Shown here piece by piece: positions 13,901 through 15,454 of a stretch of 64,000 nucleotides of DNA (the stretch's first letter is position 1; each line of letters starts with the position of its first letter). The position numbers were made by a program, and so were the translations under genes. Below the pieces are notes generated by a model. It made no database searches, had not been told where the DNA came from, and saw only the letters and a list, made by a program, of their open reading frames with translations. Origin of the DNA: an uncultured Candidatus Saccharibacteria bacterium. Its GTDB lineage: Bacteria; Patescibacteriota; Minisyncoccia; Phycocordibacterales; UBA12445. The stretch spans positions 196,861-260,860 of the forward strand of contig CAZHDO010000001.1 of the NCBI GenBank assembly GCA_964531375.1, in the 5' to 3' direction.

Positions 13901-14066
13901 TGGGAAGTATGTGGTATTTAGTATATGGAGTTAATCATTTTGATGTATAGTTCTAAATAACGCTCACAGAGTTTAAGTCATTGAATTAATGGGCAATATT
14001 TGCTAGTTTTAACTCGGATCAAAGACCTGGGTTCTTTGATAATCTAACATTACGGAGGTGTGTGCG
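13901..14066 (+). promoter_or_regulatory. repeated promoter-leader module, copy A (TTGAAT-17-TAGTTT plus conserved 5'UTR)
   Basis: Conserved blocks GAAGTATGtGGTATTTAGTAT and ATTGAATtAATGGgCaATATTTGcTAGTTTTAAcT...CTGGgttCTTTGA are shared with copies B and C. TTGAAT at 13981-13986, TAGTTT at 14004-14009, RBS GGAGGTG. Confidence 0.45.
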
Positions 14067-14807
14067 ATGAAAAATCGTGCGCAAAAGATGAAACCTGGTG
14101 ATATATCTTTAGGTATGGCCCACGAATTTATGATTTCCTTTGGTAAACAAGGTGGTAATTACAGAATGCTTCTGGAAGCAAAAGACGATGAAAAACTGAT
14201 GGATGAACTTGTAAGGTATTGGAAGCTTCGTGGATATGTGCCATCTGAAGAGCATCTTACGGCTCAAAGAATTATGGGGAAGAATTTTATTGGCGTTGAA
14301 GAATGGCTGAGGTTTGATGTCGTGACCACAAAAAAAGCATTTGATTTCATAAATAATATCCCCTTTGATGTCAATACCCTTAAGAAGTATAAAGACTCTC
14401 ATCGCCTTATCGCTGTCCCTGAAATTTCTGTAGCAAAAATGCAGAAGACAATATGTGAATTCATCGGACACAATGAATCCTTTTCTTTCCATCGGTGGGA
14501 GGATGTTGAGTGGGTGAACGACAAAGGTAACGCGGGTTGGCACCTGGTAAAAAAATTTCCCTTAATGGAAAATGAGGTTCTAAACCAAGACCATATTGAA
14601 GCGGAGGTCCGTATTGTCACTTATGCAATGAGCACCTTTTGCTTGATGACAAGTAATGTGCTTTGTGAGACTTTTGTAAAATGTCGTGAAGATAATGGAA
14701 GAGAACATTTTGGTGTTGAGCTCACCTTGGGACGAGGAATTGAATTGGGTCTCGTTTGGGATCACACACGTTCAATCTTTGAGATCGCAGAAAAAACCTG
14801 TGTTTAG
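14067..14807 (+). CDS. hypothetical protein (247 aa), island cargo
   Basis: ATG at 14067 with a GGAGGTG RBS. The ORF-track GTG at 14058 overlaps the RBS. No motif recognised. Confidence 0.55.
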   Translation: MKNRAQKMKPGDISLGMAHEFMISFGKQGGNYRMLLEAKDDEKLMDELVRYWKLRGYVPSEEHLTAQRIMGKNFIGVEEWLRFDVVTTKKAFDFINNIPFDVNTLKKYKDSHRLIAVPEISVAKMQKTICEFIGHNESFSFHRWEDVEWVNDKGNAGWHLVKKFPLMENEVLNQDHIEAEVRIVTYAMSTFCLMTSNVLCETFVKCREDNGREHFGVELTLGRGIELGLVWDHTRSIFEIAEKTCV

Positions 14808-14837
14808 ATTAGAGTGACTTATTTATCTCCAACTCTA

Positions 14838-14876
14838 AAGCTTCGCCAATGTGCGAGGCTTTTTTTTAGTTCGGAA
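14838..14876 (+). terminator. rho-independent terminator
   Basis: GCTTCGC-caatgt-GCGAGGC hairpin followed by TTTTTTTT. Confidence 0.5.
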
Positions 14877-14966
14877 TATCTTAATAGGTTAAATTTCCCA
14901 AAATAAAATCTAGCTCAAATTTTATTAACGTTTTTTAACCCCTCAACCTAGTTTTTCGATCTTGTG

Positions 14967-15125
14967 AAGTATGGGGGTATTTGGTGTTTAGTATCCAAGA
15001 ATTAAGTCTATTGGTGTCTAATCCTGTATAACACTCATAATGCCCACAAGTTCACACCATTGAATAAATGGTCGATATTTGATAGTTTTAATTGAAATCT
15101 GGAACTTTGAAAAGGAGAACACTAA
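14967..15125 (+). promoter_or_regulatory. repeated promoter-leader module, copy B
   Basis: GAAGTATGGGGGTATTTGGTGTTTAGTAT...CATTGAATAAATGGTCGATATTTGATAGTTTTAATTGAAATCTGGAACTTTGAAAAGGAG. TTGAAT at 15060-15065, TAGTTT at 15083-15088. Confidence 0.45.
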
Positions 15126-15344
15126 ATGGACACCAAAACAAAATTTCCGCTCTATCTAATGCTTGTTGGTGATCAGAAGAAATTTCTAAACTTGAGTGAG
15201 GCAGGGCAAATCTATGATTCCAGCTTTATCAATGTTGAGATCTGTGGGGATGTTCTTATGGAAGATGGATCTGTAAGGCAGATCACAAAGGAAGAACGGG
15301 GTAAGATTAGTGAGATTGCTGATGAATTCAGTTCAAGCAAGTGA
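15126..15344 (+). CDS. small hypothetical protein (72 aa)
   Basis: ATG preceded by AAAGGAG within the conserved leader. Confidence 0.5.
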   Translation: MDTKTKFPLYLMLVGDQKKFLNLSEAGQIYDSSFINVEICGDVLMEDGSVRQITKEERGKISEIADEFSSSK

Positions 15345-15388
15345 ATGGTATCTTCAAGTACACCTCTTTAGAAAAAGGGATATTTTTA

Positions 15389-15454
15389 TTGAATAATTAA
15401 CTGATTTTTGCTAGTTTTAATTGAAATCTGGAACTTTGAAAAGGAAAAAAAAGA
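15389..15454 (+). promoter_or_regulatory. repeated promoter-leader module, copy C (3' part only)
   Basis: ATTGAATAATTAACTGATTTTTGCTAGTTTTAATTGAAATCTGGAACTTTGAAAAGGA is nearly identical to copy B over the last 45 nt. TTGAAT at 15389-15394, TAGTTT at 15412-15417. Confidence 0.45.

Follow-up and report, generated by a model that had tools for sequence, protein, structure and literature searches.

The array described here lies in an island that spans 12.3-18.2 kb of the window (the whole 64,000-nt stretch of DNA analysed), has bacterial housekeeping genes as its flanks, and adjoins a tRNA-Glu gene, the 3' end of which recurs in three further copies. On the + strand, the array begins with two small genes without a family match, g70 (12615-12827) and g67 (12885-13088), followed by a terminator at 13109-13130. 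The gene g184 (13242-13796) lies on the − strand, divergent from g246, and the intergenic region is common to both. On the + strand, g246 (14067-14807) encodes a 246-aa member of an uncharacterised Patescibacteria family of ~250-aa proteins and has an intrinsic terminator at 14837-14862. It is followed by two ORFans on the same strand, g72 (72 aa, 15126-15344) and g79 (79 aa, 15455-15694), and then by a terminator at 15713-15732. An earlier reading made from the letters alone, hereafter the sequence-only reading, gave 247, 72 and 79 aa for the last three proteins; counted from the ATG at 14067 the first has 246 aa, and the other two lengths stand. The terminators 3' of g67, g246 and g79 are all intrinsic. 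A repeat of 61 nt, D3, is found twice on the + strand (14859-14919, containing the AAAATAAAATCTAGCTCAAA block, and 15735-15795; 48/61 or 79% identical, z = 16). Both copies begin at the T-tract of an intrinsic terminator, and the second abuts a structured element at 15800-15965. The recurring 22-nt block that the sequence-only reading had noticed is the AAAATAAAATYTAGCTCAAA block at 14900-14919 and 15776-15795, where it forms the end of D3.

What precedes these genes? The core ATTGAAT-N9-AT-N-TTTG-N-TAGTTTTAA has three exact matches, against 0.01 expected in shuffles, and all three lie on the + strand: copy A at 13980-14012, copy B at 15059-15091 and copy C at 15388-15420. Copy A comprises an upstream block in the divergent g184 intergenic region (13863-13979), the core with its −35 element TTGAAT (13981-13986), 17-nt spacer and TG-extended −10 element TAGTTT (14004-14009), and a leader that runs to g246 (14013-14066). 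Copy B (15059-15125) has the same −35 and TG-extended −10 hexamers at 15060-15065 and 15083-15088, and its upstream block (14934-15058) is homologous to that of copy A. Copy C (15388-15454), which follows g72 with no terminator found between them, carries the two hexamers at 15389-15394 and 15412-15417. The block shared by A and B measures ~120 nt; a conserved small ORF was considered for it and rejected, the ORFs of A and B being different. A fourth, more diverged copy, Z, lies at 12533-12596 on the + strand, 5' of the gene pair for 70 and 67 aa, with the whole promoter-leader region extending to 12614. Its sequence is TTGATT-17-TAAATT, then TTTAATTTAAATTTGGA, with the −35 element at 12534-12539, the TG-extended −10 element at 12557-12562, a leader that begins TTTAATTTAAATTTGGACATT and an SD region GGGGGGTGTGCG. 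Copy Z aligns locally with C at 49/66 positions (74% over 66 nt, z = 8.7) and with B at z = 5.3, and it is recovered in an nhmmer profile search with E = 1.7e-7. These repeats are genuine, and chance falls far short of explaining them. The sequence-only reading, which described one promoter reused before three unrelated genes, was right about the core in A, B and C, but it missed Z, and the units are four.

The four copies are 70-87% identical overall, and their homology forms a mosaic in which A and B are related through the upstream block and the core, and B and C from the −35 element to the start codon. The A/B homology covers ~160 nt from the upstream region through the −10 element (13863-14012 vs 14934-15091; 114/162 or 70% identical including the core, z = 20 against shuffles), and at higher identity only 43 nt at 81%; the additional upstream block claimed for this pair is accordingly borne out. 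B and C align without gaps over 74 nt at 82% (61/74 from the −35 element to +7) and over 61 nt at 87%. Within the 33-nt core the identities are 29/33 for A/B, 26/33 for B/C and 25/33 for A/C, and the spacer noticed by the sequence-only reading is well conserved between A and B only. The boundaries of the B/C homology coincide with function: identity is at the random level in the flanks, with 14/40 just upstream and 12/60 in the first 60 nt of the coding sequences. Within the module, B and C are identical at 34/34 positions from the −10 element to the SD (15083-15116 = 15412-15445), compared with 27/40 in the rest (Fisher p = 1.2e-4). This 34-nt run is the only exact homology of a length fit for recombination. 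What it reflects may be a site for a specific regulator or a recent conversion tract, and not promoter function alone.

The leaders differ more than had been supposed. The near-identical 5'UTR of the sequence-only reading is real for B and C, whose leaders agree over the 34-nt exact run, but not for A: the 25-mer TTGAAATCTGGAACTTTGAAAAGGA matches at 15092 and 15421 only, even when 3 mismatches are allowed. The leader of copy A is longer and different, with an AT-rich hairpin of 8 bp at 14018-14040 (14018-14025/14033-14040), and its resemblance to the B/C leader is limited to a loose echo (CTGGGTTCTTTGATAA vs CTGGAACTTTGAAAA). Folding of the UTR, which the sequence-only reading had proposed to test, is not seen in the B/C leader, which has minimum free energies of −0.9 and −0.5 kcal/mol (z = +1.5 and +1.2) and is less structured than shuffles. 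Likewise, the leader matches no Rfam family at gathering thresholds or at E ≤ 1, and an inverted-repeat search found none inside copies B, C or Z. A riboswitch or other structured leader is ruled out by the lack of an Rfam match and of a fold in the B/C leader. We infer that this A-rich, unstructured leader (34 nt in copy B, with the SD AAAGGAG) simply gives an open ribosome-binding region.

An SD stands at the proper spacing in every unit, the cores end 34-54 nt 5' of the start codon in 4/4 copies, and orientation and distance to the SD and start codon are the same in all four. The SD/start segment of copy A, GGAGGTGTGTGCGATG, is native to the g246 family: the same SD and start also precede remote g246 homologues from other metagenomes (L085, L137). 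Homology of the copy A promoter with the promoters of g246 homologues (L085, L137, L086, L091) was considered and rejected, as only the SD/start segment is common to them and the promoter is not.

Several positions are invariant in the four-way alignment: TTGA in the −35 element, TTTG-N-TA, which takes in the extended −10 TG together with T-12 and A-11; T at −7; and TTTAA-T immediately 3' of the −10 element. In this alignment, the invariance of TTGA, TG and TA...T follows the pattern that an extended −10 sigma-70 promoter would be expected to show. The hexamers themselves are weak matches to consensus (TTGAAT 4/6, TAGTTT 3/6, with TG); a simple sigma-70 consensus scan does not report them and scores other, non-conserved hexamer pairs higher in each region. 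We infer that the copies are active promoters at which transcription would start ~7 nt downstream of TAGTTT or TAAATT.

The coding regions behind the copies are non-homologous. As the sequence-only reading had stated, the proteins behind A, B and C are dissimilar to one another: no pairwise BLASTP match is better than E = 2.5 (g72 vs g79, E = 2.5), and a BLASTP comparison of all island proteins (word size 2, E up to 100) gave nothing better than E = 0.06. An exhaustive phmmer search with g246 recovered 349 remote homologues at E ≤ 1e-3, where a word-index search found g246 itself only. Elsewhere this family, which is widespread in Patescibacteria, is an ordinary stand-alone chromosomal gene. 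Homologue searches with g72 and g79 returned self-matches only, which makes them ORFans. Island proteins gave nothing above noise against Pfam, PHROGs, PADLOC and NCBIfam, and no match to DNA- or RNA-binding families.

How widely is the module distributed? An nhmmer profile search of ~72 kb of the same genome (the window plus L092, ~60 genes) found four copies only, at E ≤ 1.7e-7, with the next match at E = 2.1. An exact-pattern scan with the degenerate 33-nt core over 185,579 species genomes, JGI metagenomes and IMG/VR found no genuine copy; its single match, L004, lies in an unrelated, very AT-rich contig and is due to chance. Similarly, a scan of viral contigs with the 25-nt UTR found nothing. 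Provisionally, the module is confined to the island within the ~72 kb of genome examined. The island is lineage-specific: none of its genes adjoins rmuC in 80 related genomes. The order rmuC-recR-dnaB is kept in 32-33 of these 80, and the module is absent from all 80 rmuC neighbourhoods. In the closest GTDB representative genomes RmuC is only 66-68% identical and the island is absent, and the other assemblies that contain the locus have the same sequence. An origin in phage was rejected: there is no PHROG match of note, IMG/VR is negative (including for g373), and tblastn and blastn searches of INPHARED are negative. A search of IMG/VR with the E-element motif gave 43 matches, chance in all cases.

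We propose that a single TG-extended sigma-70-type promoter with a short leader gave rise to all four sequences as paralogous copies, spread locally within the island, and we consider this the probable explanation. Local segmental duplication or recombination would have spread the promoter and leader within the island of this Patescibacteria chromosome, such that the unrelated neighbours g70-g67, g246, g72 and g79 would each be transcribed from the same kind of promoter. The practical effect would be similar expression of the four units, and probably co-expression. The likely source is the promoter and leader of g246, the sole gene here of a conserved family, because the SD context of g246 type, GGTGTGCG, is retained in copy Z and an echo of CTGGnnnCTTTGAnAA from the g246 leader is seen in the leader of B/C; for this direction of spread the evidence is an 8-mer and a 16-nt echo, both of them short. 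The copies would require three or more events that differ in their breakpoints: one for A/B (upstream block and core), one for B/C (−35 element to ATG) and one for Z.

A different reading of the same conservation, akin to the regulon that the sequence-only reading offered as its alternative (operator within spacer or UTR) and in our view unlikely, is that duplication was merely the origin of the copies and that selection for an operator conserved them. The −10-to-SD segment TAGTTTTAATTGAAATCTGGAACTTTGAAAAGGA, or the spacer, would then be the site of a dedicated regulator that switches the four units together, either a repressor or activator or an RNA-binding translational regulator that reads two GGA motifs. 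The perfect B/C identity in exactly that segment, compared with the lower identity elsewhere, is compatible with such a site, the TTTAATTnAAATnTGGA part is retained in copy Z, and the conserved −10 element fits the consensus poorly, as is common among regulated promoters. However, the segment is absent from copy A, no further copy occurs in the ~72 kb and ~60 genes searched, and no convincing palindrome or direct repeat is common to all copies. No candidate regulator was found among the island proteins, which match no DNA- or RNA-binding family, and a recent gene-conversion tract would yield the same pattern.

The mosaic homology implies several recombination events, and this, together with the setting of the ORFans, could be taken to mean that cassettes are actively shuffled. 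The promoter repeats and post-terminator repeats would serve as portable homology with which a CPR chromosome, perhaps through a degraded or cryptic integrase-less mobile element at the tRNA-Glu gene, captures, excises and re-expresses ORFans, supplying them with ready-made expression signals derived from the resident g246. The ORFans are indeed flanked by repeats in a lineage-specific island, the promoter repeat and D3 together bracket units with homologous DNA, the island abuts tRNA-Glu with its repeated 3' ends, and promoter cassettes of phages, the PeSLs discussed below and the nearest real parallel, act in this manner (PMC2839356). We nevertheless judge such shuffling very unlikely. The copies are only four, at 70-87% identity, with one exact run long enough (34 nt, B/C); Pfam searches of all called genes from ~10 kb upstream to ~10 kb downstream of g246 found no recombinase or integrase; PHROGs, IMG/VR and INPHARED are all without phage signal; copies B, C and Z lack a stem-loop; and g246 is a normal chromosomal family elsewhere.

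The small size (67-79 aa), adjacency and common strand of g70, g67, g72 and g79 raise the question of whether whole promoter-gene units were duplicated in tandem, the coding parts then diverging beyond recognition while the promoters were kept. Fast evolution is possible for ORFans, but non-coding DNA at 74-87% identity beside coding DNA at the random level (12/60) is the reverse of what is usual. Furthermore, g246, with 246 aa and a family of its own, cannot be a paralogue of genes for 70-80 aa, and the proteins show no similarity at all, even with a word size of 2 and a cut-off of E = 100. We find this origin highly improbable. Finally, that the copies are not promoters at all but a non-coding repeat family (MITE-like, a small RNA gene, or an RNA processing or translation signal) that lies upstream of genes by happenstance is scarcely credible: the hexamers are weak by consensus, g79 could be co-transcribed with g72 across the terminator-free junction before C, and no function is assigned to the A/B upstream block (~120 nt) or to D3, but 4/4 copies share orientation and distance to the SD and start codon, the invariant positions fall on TTGA of the −35 element, TG, and T/A/T of the −10 element, and there are no terminal inverted repeats, conserved small ORF, Rfam match or stable fold. 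A mobile promoter derived from a MITE or IS was likewise rejected for want of terminal inverted repeats; an inverted-repeat search of 13790-15800 found only weak AT-rich pairs that are unrelated to the repeat boundaries, and nothing that brackets genes.

The array is a local case of a known phenomenon, promoter duplication, and not a new cassette system. Putative mobile promoters (PMPs), of which more than 4000 families were described in 1043 genomes (PMC3488235), are defined as sequences of at least 50 nt at ≥80% identity upstream of non-homologous coding sequences (PMC3488235), and most families have two members (Matus-Garcia, Nijveen & van Passel 2012, PMC3488235; PMC3575422). The copies here are likewise a small family of homologous sequences of 50-100 nt directly 5' of non-homologous coding sequences in one genome, and the coding sequences do not align (by BLASTP, and at 12/60 in the first 60 nt of g72 and g79). 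Taken strictly, only the B/C pair (61 nt at 87%, 74 nt at 82%) falls within that definition, A and Z being below 80%. PMPs are scattered, whereas all of these copies fall in a 3-kb stretch on one strand of a single island, and the host is an uncultured Patescibacteria (CPR) MAG.

The promoter-early stem-loop (PeSL) elements are regulatory cassettes of T4-type phages (Arbiol et al. 2010, PMC2839356; Comeau et al. 2014, PMC4122927). Like them, the motif here extends from upstream of the −35 element to the SD and start codon and precedes ORFans in a variable region, and its repeats could be recombination points, here putative. PeSLs match the sigma-70 consensus with AT-rich DNA upstream; the hexamers here have 4/6 and 3/6 consensus positions, with TG. 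They contain a GC-rich stem-loop terminator, whereas B, C and Z have none and only copy A has a leader hairpin, which is AT-rich. They number ~50 per phage genome, in hyperplastic regions, compared with four copies here and nothing phage-like.

The integron-like cassette system proposed by the sequence-only reading is not sustained. The likeness is one of abstract logic only, in that small genes with no relation to one another follow on the same strand and a non-coding element recurs between them. The cassettes of integrons lack promoters and are expressed from one Pc, whereas each unit here has its own promoter-like copy, and integrons are defined by the IntI tyrosine recombinase, attI and attC hairpins, none of which is present. 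The supposed cargo g246 is an ordinary stand-alone chromosomal gene elsewhere in Patescibacteria, no integrase is called from ~10 kb upstream to ~10 kb downstream of g246, and no attC-like or terminal inverted repeats flank the units. The sequence-only reading had proposed a search for more copies in this and related genomes and had named occurrence only here as evidence against itself; as far as the data reach, only four copies are found, all of them here. The morons of prophages are promoter-gene-terminator units, normally without one common promoter sequence. In this respect g246 and the g72-g79 pair may resemble them, as autonomous units of promoter, gene or genes, and terminator in a lineage-specific segment by a tRNA gene, but with no prophage backbone or phage-related gene.

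To our knowledge, the transcription signals of Patescibacteria/CPR have hardly been studied experimentally. If the copies are active, they offer the promoter and translation-initiation signals of a CPR organism as a small set with its own internal control, and as four natural variants of one promoter they would reveal the retained positions, namely TTGA, TG, TA...T and the −10-to-SD leader. On the reading preferred here, local spread of one promoter, the locus would illustrate how ORFans in a reduced genome gain expression signals by copying the promoter of a neighbour; otherwise it is an ordinary example of promoter duplication.

Finally, an artefact of assembly was considered as the source of the repeats and rejected: an ENA contig (SPAdes-style NODE) covers the whole array and shows no mismatch across the 20.7 kb retrieved. 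Two Logan contigs end 30 nt into the 34-nt exact repeat, and with an assembly k that we take to be ~31 this matches a contig stopping inside a repeat of that length.

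What do the intergenic regions of this locus share? A promoter-like core, ATTGAAT-N9-AT-N-TTTG-N-TAGTTTTAA, has three + strand occurrences, beginning at 13980 (copy A), 15059 (copy B) and 15388 (copy C), against 0.01 in shuffles; the repetition described in the sequence-only reading is real. Local alignments of the intergenic regions, judged against a null maximum score of ~31, pair 13863-14012 of A with 14934-15091 of B (114/162 identical, z = 20) and 15059-15119 of B with 15388-15448 of C (53/61 identical, z = 25), and they delimit a further repeat, D3, just after terminators (14859-14919 and 15735-15795; 48/61 identical, z = 16), whose 3' end is the 20-nt recurring block noticed earlier. 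A fourth copy, Z (12533-12614), was found upstream of g70 (genes are named by product length in residues); it reads TTGATT-17-TAAATT and then TTTAATTTAAATTTGGA, matches copy C at 49 of 66 positions (z = 8.7) and copy B at z = 5.3, and a four-copy profile recovers all four copies at E <= 1.7e-7. The three proteins downstream of A, B and C are mutually unrelated, as had been claimed, and the first has 246 rather than 247 residues. The 5' untranslated region said to be common to all three is shared by B and C, which are identical over 34 nt from TAGTTT through AAAGGA, but not by A, whose leader is longer and carries its own 8-bp hairpin.

The positions invariant in the four-way alignment are the -35 TTGA, the TTTG-N-TA that supplies the extended -10 TG together with the first two bases of the -10 hexamer, the final T of that hexamer, and TTTAA-T just downstream, which is the conservation pattern of a TG-extended sigma-70 promoter. 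Judged on consensus alone, the hexamers are a weak match, and a simple promoter scan does not report them and prefers other candidates, so the promoter call rests on position, orientation and conservation pattern. Homology among the copies is mosaic. A and B are homologous over the core and the ~120 nt that precede the -35, the upstream half of the spacer being conserved between these two only, but not over the leader; B and C are homologous from the -35 to the start codon and no further, identity outside the module being at random level (14/40 just upstream, 12/60 in the first 60 coding nt). Core identities are 29/33 for A/B, 26/33 for B/C, 25/33 for A/C and 21-23/33 for Z against the others; A and Z are relatives of greater age or divergence. 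We found neither terminal inverted repeats around the repeats nor a small ORF conserved between the upstream blocks of A and B. Intrinsic terminators follow g67, g246 and g79, and there is none between g72 and copy C.

What the alignments show directly is the homology, with its boundaries. We propose, as the probable explanation, that one promoter-leader sequence spread locally by segmental duplication or recombination, in what would have been at least three events, each with different breakpoints, leaving four paralogous extended -10 promoters that would drive unrelated neighbouring genes; promoter activity, start sites and co-expression of the copies we infer from sequence. The promoter-leader copies match a documented class, the putative mobile promoters, defined as at least 50 nt at >=80% identity upstream of non-homologous coding sequences, of which a survey of 1043 genomes found more than 4000 families, most with two members (PMC3488235); the B/C pair falls within that definition. 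The locus adds one more example of an already known kind of event, here in an unusual lineage, and is of modest value, as a naturally occurring set of promoter and translation-initiation variants from the CPR.

Between B and C the -10-to-SD segment matches at 34/34 positions, the remainder of the module at 27/40 (Fisher p = 1.2e-4). The leader of B and C lacks structure (MFE -0.9 and -0.5 kcal/mol; shuffles fold more strongly), and Rfam holds no family for the leaders, either at gathering score or with E <= 1. The B/C leader sequence GGAACTTTGAAAAGGAG (15100-15122 and 15429-15451) may resemble the phage T7 gene 10 leader, or 'epsilon' translational enhancer, TTAACTTTAAGAAGGAG. The complete identity of the -10-to-SD segment favours a mini-regulon with its operator there, which would be compatible with an origin by duplication; we consider it unlikely, as no candidate regulator was identified, the segment is missing from copy A, and the island holds every copy found in the 72 kb of genome searched (the window plus 7.7 kb past its left end), where the profile's next match has E = 2.1. 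Still less probable is an active shuffling system, integron-like or akin to the promoter-early stem-loop cassettes of T4-type phages, whose architecture is similar, motifs that span promoter to SD standing ahead of ORFans in variable regions (PMC2839356): the defining stem-loop is missing in B, C and Z, nothing at the locus is phage-like and no recombinase is called among the genes within ~10 kb of g246 on either side. The earlier picture of one expression module shared by unrelated genes survives; that of an integron-like cassette system does not. Whole-gene tandem duplication followed by coding divergence is slightly harder yet to credit, since non-coding DNA is far better conserved than coding DNA and g246 has its own family. 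That the repeats are not promoters is the least plausible reading, given the uniform orientation and spacing of the copies and the pattern of invariant positions.

When species genomes, JGI metagenomes and IMG/VR were scanned for the exact pattern, the only match was a chance one in an unrelated, extremely AT-rich contig, and the module is absent from all 80 related rmuC loci. The locus has the same sequence in its other assemblies. Two Logan contigs (L002, L003) both stop at 15112, after the first 30 nt of the exact 34-nt repeat of B and C; Logan assemblies use k of ~31, and de Bruijn assembly at such k would stop there. Misassembly was rejected: the contig ends are no sign of it, because the ENA contig crosses the array with zero mismatches over the 20.7 kb fetched. 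The two Logan contigs are independent, a practical indication that promoter repeats this short break up assemblies of the organism made with small k.

The window derives from an uncultured Patescibacteria (CPR; Paceibacteria-like) MAG, and the locus is present on a 181-kb ENA contig and a 312-kb NCBI contig, annotated 'MAG: hypothetical protein WCO84_00645/00650/00655 [bacterium]'. Among 185,579 species representatives the closest RmuC proteins, 66-68% identical, come from Patescibacteria/Paceibacterota MAGs. The ~6 kb that hold the copies (12.3-18.2 kb) are flanked by an ABC transporter gene (10483-12300, - strand) on one side and by tRNA-Glu(CUC) (17443-17516, - strand) plus rmuC (18220-19263, + strand) on the other, and carry g70, g67, g246, g72 and g79 on the + strand and g184 and g373 on the - strand; the proteins encoded there have zero matches in Pfam, PHROGs, PADLOC and NCBIfam. 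None of the eight island ORFs occurs near rmuC in 80 related Patescibacteria genomes, 32-33 of which keep rmuC-recR-dnaB synteny, and in one relative (L041) rmuC is directly next to topA-dprA; the 12300-18200 stretch is therefore a lineage-specific island within a housekeeping block.

For g72 and g79 there is no homologue in an index of 5.8 billion proteins. The product of g246 (14067-14807) belongs to an uncharacterised family of ~250 aa (349 matches at E<=1e-3), whose members in this analysis all come from uncultured metagenomic and MAG contigs; it has no sequence match in Pfam or PDB, and its AF2 model, from an alignment of 49 sequences, has a pLDDT of 85. The SD-to-start segment of copy A, GGAGGTGTGTGCGATG, also precedes the two closest g246 homologues, from other metagenomes, reading GGAGTGTGCGATG at locus L085 and GGAGGTGTGCGATG at locus L137, a segment conserved at the nucleotide level among the closest family members; this part of the A leader is thus the gene's and not the shared module's. 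The family members examined (loci L085, L137, L086 and L091) have long 5' leaders, of ~50-125 nt, with visible hairpin-forming repeats. Since the SD segment of A belongs to the gene, the SD of copy Z carries GGTGTGCG (an 8-mer present twice in the window versus 0.26 expected) and the B/C leader echoes CTGGnnnCTTTGAnAA of the A leader, there is a weak hint that the g246 promoter/leader may be the ancestor from which the other copies were copied.

The neighbouring tRNA-Glu-related repeats and the element at 15800-15965 may be more unusual than the promoter finding. The 3' end of tRNA-Glu(CUC), CGATTCTCTGTAGGGTCA, is found three more times (17290-17307, 15816-15833 and 15945-15961), exact 154 nt downstream and diverged 1.6 kb further on, with one repeat inverted; ACAGAGAATCG occurs 4 times in the window versus 0.7 expected. 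These repeats, between which lies the 373-aa ORFan g373 (16109-17230, - strand), look like the att-type duplications left by integrative elements; the region holds no integrase, and the promoter array begins immediately past the outermost repeat. Two homologous, GC-rich, structured elements, E1 (15800-15965) and E2 (17290-17395), have a GC content of ~55% versus 35% for the genome, and each is preceded by a conserved ~50-nt terminator-like segment (15961-16009 and 17394-17442). E1 folds into a Y shape with a closing stem of ~17 bp (MFE -71 and -68 kcal/mol, z ~-5 on either strand), and the first internal hairpin is fully compensatory between the two, TCCAAGCT-AATA-AGCTTGGA versus CCCTTTCT-GAAA-GAAAGGGA (minus strand). 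With no Rfam match at E<=1, a motif absent from related loci and only chance matches in IMG/VR, E1/E2 are a candidate structured RNA or DNA hairpin of no known kind. Upstream of tRNA-Glu, at 17520-17790 (- strand), where ARAGORN and Rfam call no tRNA, lie tRNA-like fragments, a D-arm/anticodon-arm-like piece CGGTTAGGACAGTGCCTCCGAGAGGC at 17757-17782 and a T-arm-like piece at 17536-17564, ~190 nt apart, perhaps a tRNA gene that has decayed or been interrupted.
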